From a virus (Duplodnaviria; Heunggongvirae; Uroviricota; Caudoviricetes): a stretch of 41,444 nt of DNA. The stretch lies in IMG/VR virus record IMGVR_UViG_2563366870_000005. The stretch is one strand, 5' to 3'. Numbering within the stretch: the first letter of the stretch is position 1; each line of letters starts with the position of its first letter. Position numbers and translations under genes: made by a program. The notes under the pieces were generated by a model. That model made no database searches. It was not told where the DNA came from and saw only the letters and a program-made list of their open reading frames with translations. Positions 7,599-37,983 of the stretch are shown here, piece by piece.

Positions 7599-7901
7599 TT
7601 ACTCCGTTGATACCAGTAAATGGCTGCAACTGCCCAGGTCAGTTTTCGTGGGATAATCCTGTGTGTTGTCATCGCAGACCACCAACAGCTTAAAACCAAG
7701 CCCCATACAGGCGTACTGCGCCAGCAGATCAGCGCCAGTGACGAGAGGAATACCGGAGATTACCGGCTCCCCTCTGTCATTCTGCAGGTCCATAATCCAG
7801 TACAGATCGCGCCATATGATGCTAATCCGCCAGGTGACACCGCCCAGGACGATGCTGAACTGCTGGTTGTCCGCTGTCAGCGGAATTTCCTGAATTGTCA
7901 T
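7599..7901 (-). CDS. Tail protein (small, baseplate-associated)
   Basis: 100-aa ORF, ATG 7899-7901 overlapping the stop of the upstream gene; within the tail operon. Confidence 0.5.
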   Translation of the reverse strand: MTIQEIPLTADNQQFSIVLGGVTWRISIIWRDLYWIMDLQNDRGEPVISGIPLVTGADLLAQYACMGLGFKLLVVCDDNTQDYPTKTDLGSCSHLLVSTE

Positions 7902-8488
7902 TAGCCGCCTCCCAGTAATGACGCCACGTTACCCGTAATGCTTTTCAGCAGTGAAGTATCTGGAGGCTTTGTGGTTTTGTTGCCGCTATTCTGTACCGCC
8001 GACGTGCTGGCCCCTTCCTTCATGTTGGTTTTATCCGCGACGGTAATCTGCTGTGTCCGGGAGATAAGGACCTCCCTCAGGGTAAGGACGGCGGACAGGA
8101 CATTTTCGGTTGTCTTGTCCGTCGTCACTTCCAGCGCCCGGATCAACATGTTGCTGTACAGCCGTTTACCGGTTACCACATCGAAGGGGATACGGCTTTC
8201 CTGCAAATCCAGTAGCTCCTGATACGTCTGCTGAGGACTCAGGCCGAGCAGGCTGGTAGCCGTCAGGTTACTGGCAAAATCCAGCAATGTGCCGCCACCG
8301 GCGAAACCAACCTCCATCACCACTTCTGACGGTTTTTTATAGGCATGATCAGCGACAGCAGCCCCGACCTCTACCGGATGCTCGGTTATTTCAAGCATAT
8401 CTGTATGCTTCTCTGAAATAACAACACTGGGAACAATCATTCCTATTTTTCTGCTCTGCTGATGAAAAAGTGTAGAGAGAATATCCAC
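7901..8488 (-). CDS. Tail protein following the tape measure
   Basis: 195-aa ORF starting with GTG 8486-8488 overlapping the tape-measure stop; function by position only. Confidence 0.45.
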   Translation of the reverse strand: MDILSTLFHQQSRKIGMIVPSVVISEKHTDMLEITEHPVEVGAAVADHAYKKPSEVVMEVGFAGGGTLLDFASNLTATSLLGLSPQQTYQELLDLQESRIPFDVVTGKRLYSNMLIRALEVTTDKTTENVLSAVLTLREVLISRTQQITVADKTNMKEGASTSAVQNSGNKTTKPPDTSLLKSITGNVASLLGGG

Positions 8489-10476
8489 TAACCCACCCTC
8501 ACCTGATTACTTCGCATGACCTGAGCATTTGCAGACTGTTGCCGACGTGCAACCTCATTACCGACAGCGTGCGGATCTCCGCCACCGTAAATGTGGTAGG
8601 TATTTTGCTGGTTAACCTCTGTCATTTTGCCACTAATTCCCGCCACGGCAGCCTTATTAATCAGCTCTCGAGAATAGATATTTCTTCCATTTTCATGCTG
8701 GATAATGCTGCTCATCAATGCTGACATGGTTTTCGGATCGCTCATATTCAGGGCAGCCCGGGGATCCACTCCCAGTCGTTGCGATACAGCCCTGATATAC
8801 GCAGTTGTGTTGTTATTATCAGAGGCAGGTGCCCAGGTAGAGATAATTTTTTCCACACTGTTTATTCCTCGCCCGGCGTACAACATTAACTGACGAGCAA
8901 GAGCCCGTAATCCATCAAAGGCAGTTTCAAATCTGGCAAATCGCCCGCCCGGGTGTTCAAGAGAAGCCCCCGCCTGACCAGCAAAATTAAGGTTTCCCGG
9001 ATTGTTATTCCGTTCTCCTCGTTTCGTAGCCTGTGCATGTTGTTCCGGCTCATCATCACCAAACCAGCCGCGTACCGTCCGGCCCACACTGCGGGGATCG
9101 AATCCCCAGTGCTCTTTAATCCAGTCGGCAGTACTGTTAGCGCTGTCTGTAACCATCGGCATCGCTGACGGATTTTCGCTGCCCTGATTAAGTATCTGTT
9201 TGCCGATGCTGACGGCATCAGCCCAGCGTCCATCTTTGATAGCGTTGAGCAGGTCGGCGATCATGTTCAGCATTTTGCTGAATTCGCCCATCTGGTCGAT
9301 GAAGTTGCTGAAATCCCACTTCAGGGACCATGATTTGGGGTCAATATTGAGTAGTTTCGCCAGCGCTTTCGCCAGATCGTTAACGGTCGTTTTAAGGTCA
9401 CGAACCATCTTCAGCGCGGCATCGACCTCCGGTTTCCACTTGCCCCAGTCAATCAGGCTGTCGCCGCCTTCCTTCCAGGTCTGATAGTCCTCCCACAGGA
9501 GGGCAATCCCCGCCGCCAGCGCGGTAATGAGGCCAACCGGCGACATCCAGAACGTACTGTTCAGAATGCGCAGCGCAATCGTCAGTGCGCCAAACAGCGA
9601 GATCAACTCCCGCGTTTGCTTATCCAGCGATTGCCACCAGGTGATAAGGCCTGATGTCCCCTCAATCAGTCTGAAGAACAGCCGCCCGATAATATCCCCG
9701 AGCGCCAGAATGCCTTTTATGGCTTTCGTCAGAGTCTGCTCGATACGAGGGAAGTTGTCCAGGATATGGCGGCGCAGGGTGTCCAGCGAACCTGCAAGCC
9801 CACCCGCAAGATTAGAGCCGATTTTGTCACGGGCCATGCCTGCCATCGCGCTAAACTCACGCAAGGAGGTCATAAATTTGTTGGAGCTTCTGGCCGCCTC
9901 GTCAGCATTGAAGCCGATAGCTTTCGCCATTGCGCTGTACTGCCCGGAGAAGCCACCCACACCCCGGCGCATCGCCATAAGGGTATTTTCGTCAATGCCC
10001 AGCATCTGCGCATACTGGTTAGCCCGGTAATACGGCATGCTGCTGAGTTTCTGTCCAACGCCCGTAAAGATAGCGGCCATGTCACGCATGTTACCGCTGG
10101 CATCACGGGTCTGTACGCCCAGGCGATTCAGAAATCCCTCCGCCCCGGGATTATTACGAATAAACCGGGAGAGGTTTTCCAGAGAAGATCGCGCAGCGTC
10201 CACGCTGCCGCCAACCTGCGAAACCGCATAGCCAATAGACTGAATTCCCTGGACTGTCGCGCCGGTGCGCTGTGACGCCCAGTAAAGATTATCCAGACCA
10301 GAGGCGATCTTAGCCGTGAAGGCCACCACGGACAGCGCAGCTCCTTCGACGGCCAGCCCCATTTTGATGACATTTGCAGTTGTACCGGCGAGGACAGAAC
10401 CGAATTTTTTCGCTCCTGCATCATCCACACTGAAGCCAAGCGAGACGAGGAAATCTTTAATAGTCTCGGCGTTCAT
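8488..10476 (-). CDS. Tail tape measure protein
   Basis: Largest tail ORF, follows the tube-chaperone-frameshift arrangement; preferred start ATG 10474-10476 (MNAETIKDFL) with strong SD GGAGAGAGG; track start 10497 is TTG. Confidence 0.8.
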   Translation of the reverse strand: MNAETIKDFLVSLGFSVDDAGAKKFGSVLAGTTANVIKMGLAVEGAALSVVAFTAKIASGLDNLYWASQRTGATVQGIQSIGYAVSQVGGSVDAARSSLENLSRFIRNNPGAEGFLNRLGVQTRDASGNMRDMAAIFTGVGQKLSSMPYYRANQYAQMLGIDENTLMAMRRGVGGFSGQYSAMAKAIGFNADEAARSSNKFMTSLREFSAMAGMARDKIGSNLAGGLAGSLDTLRRHILDNFPRIEQTLTKAIKGILALGDIIGRLFFRLIEGTSGLITWWQSLDKQTRELISLFGALTIALRILNSTFWMSPVGLITALAAGIALLWEDYQTWKEGGDSLIDWGKWKPEVDAALKMVRDLKTTVNDLAKALAKLLNIDPKSWSLKWDFSNFIDQMGEFSKMLNMIADLLNAIKDGRWADAVSIGKQILNQGSENPSAMPMVTDSANSTADWIKEHWGFDPRSVGRTVRGWFGDDEPEQHAQATKRGERNNNPGNLNFAGQAGASLEHPGGRFARFETAFDGLRALARQLMLYAGRGINSVEKIISTWAPASDNNNTTAYIRAVSQRLGVDPRAALNMSDPKTMSALMSSIIQHENGRNIYSRELINKAAVAGISGKMTEVNQQNTYHIYGGGDPHAVGNEVARRQQSANAQVMRSNQVRVG

Positions 10477-23540: not shown

Positions 23541-23566
23541 ATAAAAAAGGCCCCCTTGCGGAAGCC
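23541..23566 (-). terminator. Rho-independent terminator after the Q operon
   Basis: Minus strand: GGCTTCC-GCAA-GGGGGCC hairpin (7 bp incl. two G-U pairs, GCAA tetraloop) followed by TTTTTTATT; downstream of ORF 23634..23975. Confidence 0.55.
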
Positions 23567-23633
23567 TCTTCGTGATGAACTGTTTTCAACGGATATCAGG
23601 CTAATCGGCTTTTTGGAATTCCACAACTATTTT

Positions 23634-23975
23634 TTATCTTACCTTGATGCCTGATGCCGTCAGATGTTTACGACAGTCCTGAATACCTTCGTTATAACCC
23701 GCATCGTAGAAGCTATCCGGCTTTGCCTTCAGCGCAGGAAGCGTAACGCTGGTAGCTCTTCGTTCGGCCAGAACACCTGCCTGAAAGAGTGTCCACATCA
23801 ACTGAACTGCTGAATCACAGTAAGTAACATCTTCACTGTACAATTCTCGTTCAATCCTGATGCCAAGTTGAGCCTTCATTGATGCGCTAATATTACCTTT
23901 GACCTGCAACGACAGGTCTGGGTACCTCTGTTCCATGAAGCTTTCGAATCTGTTGCGAACGCTGATCAGAGCCAT
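23634..23975 (-). CDS. Hypothetical protein
   Basis: 113-aa ORF with ATG start between Q and the late promoter region; no family recognised. Confidence 0.5.
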   Translation of the reverse strand: MALISVRNRFESFMEQRYPDLSLQVKGNISASMKAQLGIRIERELYSEDVTYCDSAVQLMWTLFQAGVLAERRATSVTLPALKAKPDSFYDAGYNEGIQDCRKHLTASGIKVR

Positions 23976-24006
23976 CTGGTTCCCTTACGTGATTGATTGC
24001 TGGATA

Positions 24007-24429
24007 TTATGCCGCCGAGCAGCTCCTACTCAAAGTCCTGATAGCCTGAGGCTTTGACTGAACCGACTGATCCATTTCGAGCACCACATCCAGCATGGCT
24101 AAGCAACCGTCAATAAATCCCTCTGCCGCCTGAAGCCTCTTCAGAACGTGGGTGTGAGATACGCCGAGCTTCTCACCCATCGCCCGCACGGGCATGGCCT
24201 GGACGTAATGCCACTCAAGGAGCGTGCACAGATACGGATCTTTTTTCTTCAGGCAGCTCATAGCGGAGTTGATGATAAGTCCGTCATTGTCACTGCATTT
24301 CAGCCTTCCAGACTGCGTCGCGGGTAGCAGATTCTTAAACCCGGCTGCAACAGGAGGAAAGTAGACGCTACCACCTTCACTCGCTGCCCAGCCACCCCAG
24401 CGCTCTAAAACCTGTTGAATATTACGCAT
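24007..24429 (-). CDS. Q: Late gene antitermination protein Q-like
   Basis: 140-aa ORF upstream of the late promoter/terminator region and lysis cassette; Cys/His-containing C-terminal half typical of Q-family antiterminators. Confidence 0.7.
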   Translation of the reverse strand: MRNIQQVLERWGGWAASEGGSVYFPPVAAGFKNLLPATQSGRLKCSDNDGLIINSAMSCLKKKDPYLCTLLEWHYVQAMPVRAMGEKLGVSHTHVLKRLQAAEGFIDGCLAMLDVVLEMDQSVQSKPQAIRTLSRSCSAA

Positions 24430-28011: not shown

Positions 28012-28182
28012 TCTTTAGCCACAAGTCGAACGGCGCGACTCTAAACCATGCGTCGGGACCGTGGCGGGACAGGATGTCGGCAATACGGGTCAGTAAGTTC
28101 CCTTTGGGGTGCGGCGAAGCACTGTCTACTGATACAAGTCGAAGCCGCCGAACCACCAAAGTGAACTGAATGAGGAAACGGC

Positions 28183-28377
28183 GTGAAAACGTATAAACCG
28201 CTCAAAGGTGAATGCCCTGCTTGCCAAACACAGCTTCAGACACCAAAGCCAAAACGATACCAAATCAACGAATGTTATGAGCACTGCCCTGGATGTGGTG
28301 CTTTCCTGCATACCATTGCAACGCACTGGCGTGTCCGCTTCAACCTTGTGGTACCACGTACGCACAATACCAACTGA
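28183..28377 (+). CDS. Small zinc-ribbon protein (CxxC ... CxxC)
   Basis: 64-aa ORF, GTG start with SD GAGGA 7 nt upstream; Cys pairs CPACQ and CPGCG; followed by a terminator. Confidence 0.5.
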   Translation: MKTYKPLKGECPACQTQLQTPKPKRYQINECYEHCPGCGAFLHTIATHWRVRFNLVVPRTHNTN

Positions 28378-30861: not shown

Positions 30862-31410
30862 ATGAAACTGAAGTTGAACAATGTTCGTCTGGCCTTCCCG
30901 TCTCTGTTTGAAGCTAAAACTGTAAACGGCGAAGGCGATCCGCGTTTCTCCGCAGTATTTTTAATGTCACCCAAACACCCACAACTGGAAGAAATCCGTA
31001 AAGCTATGAAGCAGGTAGCGAAGGAAAAATGGGGAGAGAAGTGGGAGCCCATTTATAGCCAGCTGGAGAAAAAACTCAATCTGTGCCTGCATGATGGTGA
31101 TGAAAAAGCAGAGTATGAAGGCTTCCCCGGTAATTTCTTCCTGAACGCTGCTAACAAAGCGCGCCCAGCTGTTCTTGATCGCGATCGTTCGCCACTAATT
31201 CAGGCTGATGGACGTCCCTATGCAGGGTGCTATGTAAACGCCGTTATCGATATCTGGGCACAGGACAATAATTTCGGTAAACGCATTAATGCCTCACTCG
31301 GCGGAGTCCAGTTCCTGCGAGACGGCGATGCATTCGCTGGCGGCGGAGTGGCAAGCGCTGACGATTTCGACGATATCAGCGAAGGTGCTGATGCTGAAGC
31401 ACTGATTTAA
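30862..31410 (+). CDS. Phage ssDNA-binding-like protein (DUF2815-type)
   Basis: 182-aa ORF, SD AAGGAAA; N-terminus MKLKLNNVRLAFPSLFEAK and acidic C-terminal tail (DDFDDISEGADAEALI) typical of SSB-like proteins. Confidence 0.65.
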   Translation: MKLKLNNVRLAFPSLFEAKTVNGEGDPRFSAVFLMSPKHPQLEEIRKAMKQVAKEKWGEKWEPIYSQLEKKLNLCLHDGDEKAEYEGFPGNFFLNAANKARPAVLDRDRSPLIQADGRPYAGCYVNAVIDIWAQDNNFGKRINASLGGVQFLRDGDAFAGGGVASADDFDDISEGADAEALI

Positions 31411-31425
31411 CCCTTCTTCATAGAC

Positions 31426-31444
31426 GCCCGGTTACACGCCGGGC
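31426..31444 (+). other. GC-rich hairpin at the left edge of the AT-rich insertion
   Basis: GCCCGG-TTACACG-CCGGGC stem-loop without a T-tract, at the junction between the SSB-like gene and the AT-rich SIR2-like gene. Confidence 0.3.
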
Positions 31445-31500
31445 GAGATCCAAAAAGCTATTGGAATTTTTACGGCTATTTGTTTTTATAGAGGTATTAC

Positions 31501-33003
31501 GTGTCAACTTTGAGAATCGGTATGGAAATCCAAGAGTTTGTAAGTCACTATAAAAACCACCCTGTTCTATTCATTGGAACAGGATTTAGCCTACGGTATC
31601 TAGAAAACTCATTTAGCTGGGATGGTCTTCTTTTGAGTGTCGCAATGGAACTAACCGGTAATGCTGAGTTTTACTACGATTTGAAAGCTGAAAGCCTAGA
31701 AGGTGACGACTATCGATATGATATCTTAGCTACAAAACTTGAAGATATTTTTAATAAAAAGCTGGCAGAAGATCGTAACGGTAAGTTCAAAGACATCAAT
31801 GATGTTTTCTATGAGCACATGAAAAAAGGAAAAAAACTAAGTCGATTCAAAATTTATTTAACTTCAATACTTAAAGACCTAAAGATAAAAGAGTCAATGA
31901 TGGAGGAAATAAACAGCTTAATAAAAACAAGAAAAAACATAGGCTCCATCATTACAACAAACTACGACCAACTCGTAGAGAACATCTTCGAATTTAACCC
32001 ACTGATTGGTAACAACATTCTTTTAAGTAACCCATACGGTTCAGTTTACAAAATACATGGCTGTGTTAGTGATCCTAACAACATAATTATCACAGGTGAA
32101 GACTACGCAAACTTCGACAATAAATATGAGTTAATTCGCGCTCAATTACTCTCAATATTCATACACAACCCTATCATATTTATAGGGTATAGTATTAGCG
32201 ATAAAAACATTAAGTACTTATTAAAAACCATATTCTCATACGTTGACTTAAATACCGAACTTGCAAAAAGGATAAAAGATAATTTTCTTTTGGTTGAATA
32301 CGAAAAAGACAGCATGTCAACTGAAATTACGGAGCATGACATAGATATAGAAGGCATGTCTATCATAAGAATAAACAAAATAAAAACAAACAATTACAAA
32401 GCTGTATATGATGCCATCTCGGGACTAGTTTTGCCAGTATCCGCAATGGACATAAGAAAGGTTCAAAAAGTTTGGAGTACCATCAAAAGTGGTGGTGAGA
32501 TAAAGGTTAAAATTACAGAAAATTTAGATGAACTTCGCAATGATGAAATGGTCATTGCTGTTGGTTCAGAAAGAACCGTACAATATGTTTATCAAACAAA
32601 ATCTGAAATGATACAGAACTATTTTAAAATAGTTGACGAAGCAAACTCTCAGCTTATCGCATTACTGAATAAGCAAACCATAGCTAATAGCGAACACTTT
32701 CCAATATACGCTTTTAGTTCTATCTGCCCTGAACTAGAAAATACCGAGACATACAGAAAACGGCAGCTAGATAAAATCATTGGTAACCTTTCTCGAATTA
32801 AAACATGTAAGAGTGAGGCTGTGTCTATTGATGAAATACTAAAAGAAACGAAAGAGTATAAAGTTGCTAACACGATTATGTATTGCGTACTAAACGATAC
32901 TATTTCATTGAAACAACTACGAGATTATTTAACAAAACCAGGGCATAAAATTGATACCCAATACAGGCGACTTTTATGCTTGTATGATTATTTATCATAT
33001 TAA
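31501..33003 (+). CDS. SIR2-like (ThsA-like NADase) domain protein with uncharacterised C-terminal domain; candidate anti-phage defence gene
   Basis: N-terminal motifs in ThsA order: VLFIGTGFS, IITTNYDQLVE, KIHGCVSD, IIFIGYSISDKN. GTG start with SD AGAGG 6 nt upstream. Lys/Asn/Ile-rich and visibly AT-rich compared with neighbours; own terminator. Confidence 0.7.
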   Translation: MSTLRIGMEIQEFVSHYKNHPVLFIGTGFSLRYLENSFSWDGLLLSVAMELTGNAEFYYDLKAESLEGDDYRYDILATKLEDIFNKKLAEDRNGKFKDINDVFYEHMKKGKKLSRFKIYLTSILKDLKIKESMMEEINSLIKTRKNIGSIITTNYDQLVENIFEFNPLIGNNILLSNPYGSVYKIHGCVSDPNNIIITGEDYANFDNKYELIRAQLLSIFIHNPIIFIGYSISDKNIKYLLKTIFSYVDLNTELAKRIKDNFLLVEYEKDSMSTEITEHDIDIEGMSIIRINKIKTNNYKAVYDAISGLVLPVSAMDIRKVQKVWSTIKSGGEIKVKITENLDELRNDEMVIAVGSERTVQYVYQTKSEMIQNYFKIVDEANSQLIALLNKQTIANSEHFPIYAFSSICPELENTETYRKRQLDKIIGNLSRIKTCKSEAVSIDEILKETKEYKVANTIMYCVLNDTISLKQLRDYLTKPGHKIDTQYRRLLCLYDYLSY

Positions 33004-33023
33004 GCATTCTTAACTTCGGTTAT

Positions 33024-33055
33024 AAAAAGCCGCCATTTTGGCGGCTTTTTATTTA
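33024..33055 (+). terminator. Rho-independent terminator after the SIR2-like gene
   Basis: AAAAA-GCCGCC-ATTTT-GGCGGC-TTTTTATTT: perfect 6-bp GC stem flanked by A and T runs, 20 nt after the stop. Confidence 0.8.
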
Positions 33056-33079
33056 TTAAATCCAACGGGTCCTTACTTG

Positions 33080-35160: not shown

Positions 35161-35376
35161 ATGTCATTTAAATACCGGGACAATCCACTTTATTACAGGG
35201 CTGCAAGGGAAGCTTTGCGACTTGAACAATCCGGCGAATATGACCGGGCAGCGGAGGTCTGGGCAAAAGCCAACCGCGAATCACATCACGAACTGAATCA
35301 GGAATGGAGTGAACGCAGATCTGATTTTTGCCTGATGCAGAACATGCGTGAAAAGCGTAAGGCGGTCGAAGAATGA
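35161..35376 (+). CDS. Small hypothetical protein
   Basis: 71-aa ORF with ATG start, translationally coupled (ATGA) to the next gene. Confidence 0.5.
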   Translation: MSFKYRDNPLYYRAAREALRLEQSGEYDRAAEVWAKANRESHHELNQEWSERRSDFCLMQNMREKRKAVEE

Positions 35377-35672
35377 TCGTTTACGTTGCCGGGCCGATGA
35401 GCGGTTACGAGCAATTTAACCGCCCGGCCTTTCATTCCGCAGCAAAGAGGCTAACGGACAAGGGATATGTTGTGCTTAACCCCGCAACTTTACCCAATGG
35501 TTTGACACAGGCTCAGTACATGGACATCTGCCTCGCAATGCTTCGCTGTGCCGATACGATTTATATGCTCAAAGAGTGGGAGTACTCTGCCGGCGCACGT
35601 GCAGAAAACGCGTTGGCAGAGAAACTGGAATTGAATGTGCTTTTTGAAGAGTGGGATTCAGATGGCCTATGA
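35373..35672 (+). CDS. DUF4406-like protein (nucleoside 2-deoxyribosyltransferase-like fold)
   Basis: 99-aa ORF beginning MIVYVAGPMSGYEQFNRPAF, as in DUF4406 proteins common in phage replication modules. Confidence 0.55.
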   Translation: MIVYVAGPMSGYEQFNRPAFHSAAKRLTDKGYVVLNPATLPNGLTQAQYMDICLAMLRCADTIYMLKEWEYSAGARAENALAEKLELNVLFEEWDSDGL

Positions 35673-35955: not shown

Positions 35956-36941
35956 ACCCTAACGCAGCACAATGGCTGCGTAACCTTATTGCTGCGGGTC
36001 ATATCGCCCCGGGTGAAGTTGATGAAAGGAGTATCGAAGATGTCGCACCAGACGACTTGCGCGGATTCACACAGTGCCATTTCTTCGCCGGGATCGGCGT
36101 CTGGTCTTATGCTCTGCGTCTGGCCGGATGGCCGGATAACAAACCGGTCTGGACAGGAAGTTGCCCGTGCCAGCCTTTCAGCTCGGCTGGTAAAGGCGCT
36201 GGGTTTGATGACGAGCGGCACCTATGGCCAGCACTATTCCACCTCATCAGCGAGCGACGCCCTAAGCTGGTATTTGGCGAACAGGTTGCGGGAGTCAATG
36301 CCTGGTTCGATCTTGTACAAACTGACGTGGAGGCAGTGGACTACGCCTTTGGGCTTGTCCCGTTTCCGGCTGCGGGCGTCGGTGCCCCGCATATCCGAGA
36401 TAGAGCGTATTGGGTGGCCGACGCCAGCGGCGAGCGACCACAGCGGTGGCGAAAGCGCCTCAATAGCATTGAGGAAGATGTCTGGAGATCGTCGACCGTC
36501 CGGCAACACGCTACACAGCTCCCTGCGGGATTTTGCTCACCTGGCGGGGTGGTACACCCCAACCTGCAACACAAACCCACAGCCGGAGACAAAACGCGGT
36601 CTAGAAACCTTAGCGGGGCTATCCAGATTAGCGGGATGGCCGACAGTGACGACGGTCGACAACAACCAAGTTCGTGGCGAGGGCGCAGCGGCCAATCATA
36701 CCAAACGGGGAACGACCCTCGGCGGCCCAATACGATTAACAGCTGCTGGGATGATGCTGACTGGCTCCTCTGCCGGGATGGTCGCTGGCGGCCAGTTGAA
36801 TCCGGCACATTCCCGTTGGCTCATGGGATTACCTCCAGAGTGGGACGACTGCGCGCCTACGGCAACGCGATAGTCGCACCAGCTGCCGCAACATTCATCC
36901 GCTCGTTTATGGAATGCGCAGGATACGACCTCATCTGTTGA
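35928..36941 (+). CDS. DNA (cytosine-5)-methyltransferase, orphan
   Basis: Motif I FFAGIGV, motif IV PCQPFS (catalytic Cys), C-terminal RAYGNAIV; GTG start with SD GGAGGGG; no adjacent restriction endonuclease recognised. Confidence 0.75.
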
Positions 36942-36943
36942 TA

Positions 36944-37873
36944 TTATGGGTTAGGTAATGCACGATTATTAAAATTATCAATAATTTGCAACGCCGCCGT
37001 TTGTCCGCCAGCCAATAGCCCTGCTTTACTCAGAAGGTATTTAGGGAATTTGGTTGGTAAATAAACCGCACGAAGCCAGTGCCTGAATACAGCTAAAGCA
37101 TTATCAGGGTATGCATAGACCATTTGGGGATTACTTGCGGATTGGTTGAATTCTTCAGGGTAATAGTGCTGGCAGCGTTGTCTTGGGCCAATCGTCGCAT
37201 CGTAGTTGGAAGAAGACCAGTAGCGAGCCCAATGCTGGCCCACACTGATATCCGGTACAGTGTACTGGTTTACTGCTAATCCAGCATGGATGAGGTCTAC
37301 CATTAAACCGGCAATTTCATTGAATACAATGAAGTGTCCAGCAGGAACCGAGTTTGCCCCATGCATGATTGACACACGAGAGTGGTAATGACGCCAAGGG
37401 TCATCAGGTATGTAGCCAAGCGCTGTATAGATGTAACCACGCATACCCGCACGGGATAGCTCGCGGAAAAACTGTAGCGCAGTAGGAGTTGCAGCACTTT
37501 GAGATACAAATGCGTAGAACTCCAGAATAGCCATACAGACTACTTCTGGGTACGCATAATGGACTGACCCATCTTTGTTGATTGGGATATAAAGAGTCGG
37601 CTCATTATATTGCTCACGCTGTAAATATGAGCTGATAAACTCCATACGCCCTCGAGCGAAAACTCCGTGGCGGAAGCTCTCTTCCCACTCTCGAGAAATA
37701 TCCGCGATATTACTGCGATGCACCCCGCAAATCCTGGCCAGCCCATTTTGCGTAAGGTAGGAGATCCCGTTCTGAAGAACCCCCATTTCTATTTCGTTAA
37801 AAACCCCCTCGGTACTAACACCTAAGTCCAGTACTTGTTGGGGTGCGGGTTGCTGACCACCAAATTCACTCAT
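36944..37873 (-). CDS. Hypothetical HTH-domain protein, opposite strand to flanking genes
   Basis: 309-aa ORF with ATG and SD AAGGA; N-terminal HTH-like motif (LTQNGLARICGVHRSNIADI) plus ~220-aa unrecognised C-terminal domain; convergent with the methyltransferase (stops 2 bp apart). Confidence 0.6.
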   Translation of the reverse strand: MSEFGGQQPAPQQVLDLGVSTEGVFNEIEMGVLQNGISYLTQNGLARICGVHRSNIADISREWEESFRHGVFARGRMEFISSYLQREQYNEPTLYIPINKDGSVHYAYPEVVCMAILEFYAFVSQSAATPTALQFFRELSRAGMRGYIYTALGYIPDDPWRHYHSRVSIMHGANSVPAGHFIVFNEIAGLMVDLIHAGLAVNQYTVPDISVGQHWARYWSSSNYDATIGPRQRCQHYYPEEFNQSASNPQMVYAYPDNALAVFRHWLRAVYLPTKFPKYLLSKAGLLAGGQTAALQIIDNFNNRALPNP

Positions 37874-37983
37874 TTTATTGTTTATCCTTACATTTAACCC
37901 TGTGGGTTACCTTCGCTGTGAATAGTAAAAATTGCCAGGCCAACTGGTGCGACCTCTAACTAGCAAAAATTTGCGAGATTATA

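Follow-up and report, generated by a model that had tools for sequence, protein, structure and literature searches.

The DNA analysed here, a stretch of 41,444 nucleotides from IMG/VR virus record IMGVR_UViG_2563366870_000005 (hereafter the window), is nearly an entire Escherichia coli prophage, with tail and baseplate genes at one end and the integrase beside yfhL at the other; this myovirus-like prophage is akin to phage vB_EcoM-606R2. Within its replication module we found a SIR2 gene of family PDC-S25 that the prophage carries as cargo; it is probably a mobile anti-phage system that consists of one gene and belongs to the SIR2-effector class. An earlier note, made from the letters of the window alone, had proposed such a single-protein defence system, and the idea gained support here, as no computational check refuted it. 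The novelty claimed for it was overstated, because PDC-S25 is already catalogued and single-protein SIR2 abortive-infection systems (DSR1/DSR2 and AbiH) are established.

Family membership was assessed with PADLOC v2.0.0 (2023). The PDC-S25 model PDLC04968 matched residues 4–500 of the protein over positions 4–514 of the 517 in the model (E = 4.1e-158, 525.6 bits), and a second PDC-S25 model, PDLC04967, also matched (E = 3.6e-56). Homologs at 32–83% identity match the PDC-S25 model over their full length as well, and more than 1,700 homologs of the family were detected. By its sequence and its single-gene ('S'-class) architecture, the SIR2 gene is a bona fide member of this catalogued computational candidate family. 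The gene and its immediate surroundings comprise the following features, given in window coordinates.

30862–31410: gene for an Enc34-type single-stranded DNA (ssDNA)-binding protein, the upstream flank of the SIR2 cassette
31425–31445, plus strand: GC-rich hairpin 3′ of the ssDNA-binding gene, with an 8-bp stem (folding free energy (dG) −16.1, z = −3.4)
~31445–33079, plus strand: exchangeable AT-rich cargo cassette made up of leader, SIR2 open reading frame (ORF) and terminator, with bounds from blastn against prophage L001
31462–31494, plus strand: conserved leader, with a TTGGAA box at 31462–31467, an AT-rich spacer and then TATAGAGG, which holds AGAGG
31501–33003, plus strand: SIR2-family ORF, member of candidate family PDC-S25, encoding 500 amino acids from GTG or 493 amino acids from the ATG at 31522
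31522–32415, plus strand: SIR2_2-type domain resembling NAD+ hydrolases (NADases), residues 8–305, with the GxG loop, TTNYD (31954–31968) and H186-G187 (32056–32061)
32416–32595, plus strand: highly conserved linker of uncertain structure, residues 306–365, with LPVSAMDIRKVQ, GGxIxV and G355
32596–33000, plus strand: all-helical C-terminal module, residues 366–500, with the signature NYF, FP, Q422, T486 and a terminal YD
32731–32955, plus strand: hypervariable patch, residues 411–485, a candidate recognition surface
33023–33051: perfect bidirectional intrinsic terminator ending the cassette, AAAAAGCCGCC-ATTTT-GGCGGCTTTTT, with flanking A and T runs
33080 (ATG): start of the family-A DNA polymerase gene, the downstream flank of the SIR2 cassette

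The SIR2 N-terminal domain that the earlier note had described was recovered by family, motif and structure comparisons alike. Pfam SIR2_2 matched residues 149–246 (E = 1.7e-22), and in a PDB profile search, which matched the SIR2 half only (ThsA, KomC and FAM118B), the GxG, TTNYD and YKIHG motifs aligned to the corresponding motifs of ThsA. G26, G28, N154, D156, H186 and G187 are invariant across 45 homologs, with the GxG loop reading FIGTGFSLRY, and N154 and H186 are at least 90% conserved even in relatives at 32–50% identity. The full-length AlphaFold model, built on 45 homologs (predicted local distance difference test (pLDDT) 74; predicted template-modelling score (pTM) 0.73), agrees with the assignment and superposes best on defence-type SIR2 NADases, with KomC as the best fold match. 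As modelled, the protein has a SIR2 Rossmann-type fold together with the catalytic motifs.

The earlier note had also described a C-terminal domain of about 250 amino acids that it could not assign. The lack of a family was borne out, as neither Pfam nor NCBIfam yielded one for this region even at permissive thresholds, but the size was not: the part without an assigned family covers about 195 amino acids (residues 306–500). The absence of the SLOG domain of ThsA, likewise noted before, agrees with both the profile hidden Markov model (HMM) scans and the all-helical structural model, and a degenerate SLOG or Rossmann C terminus was ruled out on the same two grounds. The linker at residues 306–365 is strongly conserved (entropy 0.90 bits) but has a pLDDT below 50 in the full-length model. 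When residues 360–500 were modelled alone, they gave a very confident ten-helix bundle (pLDDT 93.7, pTM 0.88). This model ruled out a death-domain lead that had come from the whole-protein structure search, and a BFVD search for a phage mimic of the helical module returned no match. The predicted module at residues 366–500, which has neither a Pfam family nor a relative among solved structures, is new to this analysis.

Variability within the protein is concentrated in the patch at residues 411–485, where the entropy is 2.25 bits, compared with about 1.0 in every other region. Conserved stretches flank the patch on either side, NYF...FP before it and a T...LLCxYD tail after it. We measured variability by amino-acid entropy and not by the ratio of nonsynonymous to synonymous substitution rates, because the homologs available as DNA are 70–78% identical at the protein level, at which synonymous sites would be saturated.

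An HMMER scan with residues 301–500 over 1.84 billion representatives found only 92 proteins. All ten of the SIR2-type carriers scanned in Pfam have an N-terminal SIR2_2 domain, and the remaining full-length carriers align over the SIR2 motifs. In one protein, P0204, the helical module instead follows a Schlafen/AlbA_2 domain (Pfam E = 1.3e-10), and in another, P0198, it is followed by a GreA/GreB C-terminal domain (E = 6e-10); P0198 in addition aligns with the final 150 positions of the PDC-S25 model. The SIR2 half, for its part, resembles that of pFR88, a sister-family, single-gene SIR2 cargo in a defence hotspot of an E. coli mobile element (a P4-like satellite). pFR88 is 33% identical over residues 13–301 and matches PDC-S25 model positions 10–342, with the similarity stopping at the start of the C-terminal region; its cassette, under its native promoter, was tested against 8 coliphages (Rousset et al. 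2022, Table S2B). Because the module occurs in Schlafen and GreA/B fusions and the SIR2 half of pFR88 has another C terminus, the SIR2 effector and the C-terminal module are separable units. It is conceivable, although we hold the idea only tentatively, that residues 366–500 form a portable infection sensor in which residues 411–485 recognise phage components and which can be coupled to SIR2, Schlafen/AlbA_2 or GreA/B C-terminal outputs. A free-standing form of the helical module, about 135 amino acids long, may exist as well. If the module were a portable sensor, PDC-S25 would represent a new sensor class, and the fusion to GreA/B, which is of the RNA-polymerase-docking type, would hint at a link between transcription and the event being sensed.

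Two sets of short or repetitive matches were seen in the same scan. About a dozen cluster representatives of 134–144 amino acids (P0155, P0157, P0162, P0164, P0165, P0168, P0169, P0175–P0178 and P0181) consist of the helical module alone, corresponding to window positions 32608–33000. All begin at the conserved internal Met-Met of 'EMMxNYF' (residues 370–371). They could be gene calls cut off at the ends of short contigs, or else a real short form that stands alone or is initiated internally. P0179 (4357 amino acids, 16 matched stretches) and P0202 (1245 amino acids, 10 matched stretches) contain many tandem copies of about 45 amino acids that match residues 427–471, a likeness to the hypervariable-patch segment that may be compositional or may reflect a real repeat relationship.

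The junction between the ssDNA-binding and polymerase genes is a variable cargo slot, and in most relatives another gene occupies it. The earlier note placed the SIR2 gene correctly between the SSB-like and polymerase genes, but the junction that it took to be conserved and split by the gene is not otherwise a tight one. Homology to L001, a prophage with alternative cargo, extends to 31444 in blastn and starts again from ~33098, inside the polymerase gene, and the arrival of SIR2 is better termed cassette replacement in a variable slot than insertion. The SIR2 gene is present in only 5 of the 159 complete E. coli genomes with the same replication module and is therefore not a core member of that module, in line with the synteny check that had been proposed. 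Other prophages have a different gene in the slot, among the matches listed a 207-aa minus-strand gene. This commonest alternative occupant (L001 4919–5542, minus strand, equivalent to window 31445–33079) has no Pfam or PADLOC match and, because of the behaviour of the slot, is itself a candidate defence gene or moron.

The same slot holds SIR2 in 13 of 55 IMG/VR viral loci, diverged prophages included. In the diverged prophages, the identities are 64% for the DUF2800 protein (whose DUF2800/PD-(D/E)XK nuclease gene lies farther upstream than the ssDNA-binding gene), 58% for the ssDNA-binding protein, 76% for the polymerase and 68% for SIR2. A 71% homolog is kept in the same slot of a degraded Klebsiella prophage remnant in which the adjoining genes are truncated, and 668 blocks of the collection list this protein. 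Because the four proteins drifted together in diverged prophages and the gene was retained in the Klebsiella remnant, SIR2 is not a one-off recent insertion. The gene is accessory in E. coli, but in one phage sub-lineage it has long occupied the slot and been kept there by selection. The slot is a tidy example of a site in a replication module that behaves like the P2/P4 defence hotspots.

The cassette has the traits of a moron: an atypical GC content (33.4%, compared with 50.4% for the window), variable presence (5/159) and a terminator of its own (z = −5.5). The AT-richness reported earlier is confirmed, with a GC fraction of 0.33–0.35 over 31501–33000 and about 0.49–0.55 in the flanks. The gene also has its own Shine–Dalgarno sequence, as previously stated, namely AGAGG at 31490–31494, 6 bases 5′ of the GTG. 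The true start is ambiguous, because M8 (the ATG at 31522) is invariant in the family and is the start chosen by NCBI PGAP, yet the nearest relatives among the enterobacteria conserve the upstream GTG/ATG, its Shine–Dalgarno sequence and the in-frame LRIGM extension. Loci from Klebsiella, Brenneria, Intestinirhabdus and Scandinavium conserve the leader together with the gene.

At the other end, the terminator is as perfect as the earlier note had it (dG −20.1 kcal/mol), and 0 of 200 shuffles fold equally well. It ends 28 nt before the polymerase ATG. As a promoter would not fit into this gap, expression of the polymerase in lytic growth apparently depends on read-through of the terminator or on antitermination, and the annotation of a near-identical prophage includes a Q-family antiterminator. 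The hairpin reported upstream of the gene is real, but it was wrongly counted as part of the insert: homology with alternative-cargo prophages runs through it to 31444, which places it in the phage backbone. It has no U-tract here, whereas its Klebsiella equivalent has one.

We found no partner gene for SIR2. Among the non-structural genes of the window there was no TIR, HerA, Argonaute or other partner, ten neighbouring proteins gave no TIR match, and the annotation of a near-identical prophage contains only structural, lysis, regulatory and replication genes, with no TIR annotated. This upholds the earlier observation that no TIR (ThsB) gene is nearby. We extended the partner check by de novo ORF clustering around 80 homologs from species-representative genomes of many phyla (51–79% identity). 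No neighbour cluster occurred in more than 7 of these 80 loci, and neighbourhoods differed between taxa. The neighbours that did recur were serine recombinases, tyrosine integrases, a relaxase, Dcm with Vsr, and type I restriction–modification genes (HsdM, HsdR and YgjP), with HsdR about 73 bp from the SIR2 homolog in three loci; in Methylobacter, the homolog is a lone insertion between ubiD and hemY. A Salmonella gene 30 bp downstream of a homolog (L149 7527–8753) was rejected as a partner, as it had no PADLOC match and was not recurrent. Because there is no recurrent partner and the company consists of defence and mobility genes, these data carry the signature of a self-sufficient, horizontally mobile gene.

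The distribution of the family is similarly broad. It occurs in 55 IMG/VR viral loci and on 130 plasmids, 91 of them conjugative. Full-length but distant homologs (27–31% identity) are found in temperate phages of Firmicutes (phBC6A51 and Javan227, for example) as well as on Bacillus anthracis plasmids of ~94.7 kb, which from their size we take to be pXO2. In E. coli, a homolog with 83% identity occupies the old/tin position of a P2-like prophage, flanked by the portal gene gpQ and by gpA. This position is an anti-phage hotspot for which a figure legend lists SIR2 cassettes (Rousset et al.). In the Firmicute loci L006–L008 (720–5126), genes for a 993-aa reverse transcriptase (RVT_1) and a 474-aa HATPase_c_4 protein adjoin the SIR2 homolog, and the pair sits between recombinase fragments and a KilA-N gene; a reverse-transcriptase-based defence system may share the island with the SIR2 homolog.

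These features suggest how the protein might work. In the uninfected lysogen, SIR2 would be held inactive. On superinfection, the C-terminal helical module, probably through the patch at residues 411–485, would directly recognise a phage-made component, and recognition would make the protein self-assemble or change its conformation, opening the SIR2 active site (N154, D156 and H186). The activated enzyme would then hydrolyse NAD+, and the infected cell would cease to support phage replication, an outcome that amounts to abortive infection. We infer the NADase activity, the activation by assembly, the direct sensing of phage, the abortive outcome and the expression in the lysogen. Activation by higher-order assembly is probable because the deposited structures of several of the closest structural relatives are helical or filament assemblies. 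Direct sensing of a phage macromolecule is favoured over a small-molecule signal because there is no signal-generating partner and because one variable patch suits a recognition surface better than it suits a conserved messenger pocket.

One alternative is that the protein is an orphan Thoeris-type, ThsA-like effector that awaits a nucleotide signal made by a TIR or another signalling enzyme elsewhere in the host or on another element. Among solved structures, ThsA gives the strongest sequence match (E = 3e-9), ThsA1 models rank next after PDC-S25 in PADLOC (E = 4e-18), and the C-terminal region starts exactly where the SLOG domain of ThsA starts. The best fold match is to KomC, which supplies the SIR2 NADase of the multi-gene Kongming system (KomABC) and is activated by a signal. 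Set against the helical, partnerless architecture described above, we regard an orphan effector as quite improbable. A housekeeping or regulatory protein deacylase of the ordinary sirtuin type (CobB-like), present on the prophage by chance, is more remote still and can be given very little weight: the SIR2 protein sequence contains no CxxC pair, whereas canonical sirtuins (CobB/Sir2) have two in a zinc-ribbon module, and SIR2_2 is the sole Pfam match, with none to the canonical SIR2 family. The gene could also serve the lytic cycle or counter-defence, as an NAD-dependent ADP-ribosyltransferase or deacylase acting on host or phage replication proteins and expressed along with the early replication operon, or could stabilise the element as an addiction-type toxin. 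It lies between the ssDNA-binding and polymerase genes and is co-oriented with both and with DUF2800, and the same slot has been kept across diverged prophages, where the gene co-diverges with replication genes. Moreover, read-through into the SIR2 gene is likely, because the upstream hairpin has no U-tract. However, 154 of the 159 related E. coli prophages replicate without SIR2, and close homologs lie outside a phage replication context, in the P2 old/tin hotspot, on plasmids, in restriction–modification islands and as lone chromosomal insertions. The gene was also retained in the degraded Klebsiella remnant among truncated neighbours, the structural neighbours of the protein are defence NADases, and the cassette carries its own, moron-like terminator. 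We therefore consider a lytic, counter-defence or addiction role unlikely.

Several points nevertheless weigh against a mobile anti-phage system. No canonical sigma-70 promoter was found in the 56-nt leader, in which manual reading showed only TTGGAA and TATAGA boxes 20 nt apart; the missing promoter bears on expression in the lysogen and also speaks for the lytic role. The co-orientation with early replication genes points the same way, and the SIR2 gene might be expressed mainly in the lytic cycle. The strong terminator would need to be read through in lytic growth. In the full-length AlphaFold2 model, confidence is low at the catalytic His loop (residues 166–189) and in the linker (312–363). 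The variability of residues 411–485 could reflect relaxed constraint rather than diversifying selection, and the Schlafen and GreA/B fusions are represented by one cluster representative each. The literature that we could search yielded neither an experimental validation nor a mechanism nor a domain description for PDC-S25, and the only mention of the family that we found was a PADLOC listing in an O157:H7 strain. PADLOC PDC entries are explicitly not all validated, and pFR88 appears only among the 'additional tested systems', not on the validated list (Rousset et al. 2022).

The prophage carries further variable cargo, some of which bears on a defence function of the SIR2 gene. A second defence gene lies in another variable slot and supports the defence reading.

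36944–37873, minus strand: full-length BstA homolog (PADLOC PDLC02356, E = 2.5e-110; no Pfam match)

BstA is a prophage-encoded abortive-infection protein. The prophage thus carries two defence-type cargo genes, SIR2 and BstA. The BstA island (~36932–37980) is a second variable slot between a Dcm methylase and an SNF2 helicase. BstA is missing from the otherwise near-identical prophages L002 and L095, and in the diverged prophage L100 a BstA at 65% identity lies downstream of the SIR2 slot. A third variable island just after the polymerase gene (35161–35672) holds a PerC-like 71-aa ORF and a DUF4406 protein (Pfam E = 6e-34); in L001, the equivalent stretch (7666–8694) encodes on its minus strand a HATPase_c protein of the GHKL type, for which there is a weak DrmA-like match. 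Small islands at 23555–24382 and 28178–28363 are not shared with the near-identical prophage L002, and ORFs at 23634–23975 and 24007–24429 (minus strand) overlap the first of these.

If the anti-phage function were confirmed, a widespread candidate family would join the validated SIR2-based abortive-infection systems: PDC-S25 is spread over many bacterial phyla, on phages, on plasmids and in restriction–modification islands. It would also provide a compact 500-aa model for the switching of a SIR2 NADase without a partner or second messenger. The helical module offers a concrete handle on the phage trigger, because it lacks known fold relatives, contains a hypervariable patch and occurs in alternative domain fusions. 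The value of the finding is incremental rather than paradigm-changing, because single-protein SIR2 defence is established and the family had been flagged by PADLOC. The gene combines a familiar effector and logic with an undescribed helical C-terminal module, and is a well-founded experimental candidate that would not surprise a specialist.

We compared the protein with known SIR2-containing systems. Thoeris ThsA (PDB 6LHX, 7UXT, 8WC0 and 8BTO) is a SIR2-SLOG NADase, whereas here the SLOG/STALD domain is replaced by an unrelated helical bundle; Thoeris also has a ThsB/TIR partner, which the SIR2 gene lacks, and PADLOC ThsA models match the SIR2 part only. KomC of Kongming (PDB 8ZSF and 9V0G) has 264 amino acids, consists of SIR2 alone and acts together with KomA and KomB, whereas the protein described here has an additional C-terminal region and no partner genes. 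Sequence identity to KomC and human FAM118B (PDB 9R0P) is 17–19%. No neighbour is conserved across the 80 loci; PADLOC v2.0.0, which dates from 2023, contains no Kom models. For SIR2-HerA (Nezha) and the SIR2 systems with short prokaryotic Argonautes (SIR2-pAgo), the HerA helicase or short pAgo is absent from the window and not recurrent in the 80 loci, and matches to the PADLOC SIR2 (HerA-type) and Aga_SIR2 models are marginal (E = 1e-4 to 2e-2). Nezha and the Sir2 homologue of Vassallo et al. 2022 were also considered as names for the family and rejected, being different systems.

The closest likenesses in organisation are to single-gene determinants. DSR1/DSR2, the defence-associated sirtuins (Garb et al. 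2022, as cited in other papers), likewise combine in one polypeptide a SIR2 effector at the N terminus and a sensing region at the C terminus, and the expected logic would be the same by analogy: the protein would detect a phage component directly and deplete NAD+, aborting the infection. However, DSR proteins are much larger (about 1000–1250 amino acids; Dsr1 models span 1,227–1,263 positions), compared with 500 amino acids here, and the 135-aa helical module has no DSR counterpart. The Dsr1 match is weak and limited to SIR2 (PADLOC E = 3.7e-5 over residues 149–278 only; NCBIfam 11 bits against a cutoff of 1400). Lactococcal AbiH, now recognised as sirtuin-like (PMC13064643), is an earlier example of abortive infection determined by a lone SIR2-like gene on mobile DNA; no AbiH model in Pfam or PADLOC matched at E ≤ 1. 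On the features that define them, the gene falls outside Thoeris, DSR, SIR2-HerA/SIR2-pAgo and AbiH. Taken together, these comparisons suggest a protein that couples a SIR2 domain of the ThsA/KomC type to a logic that, by analogy, would resemble that of DSR1/DSR2 or AbiH.

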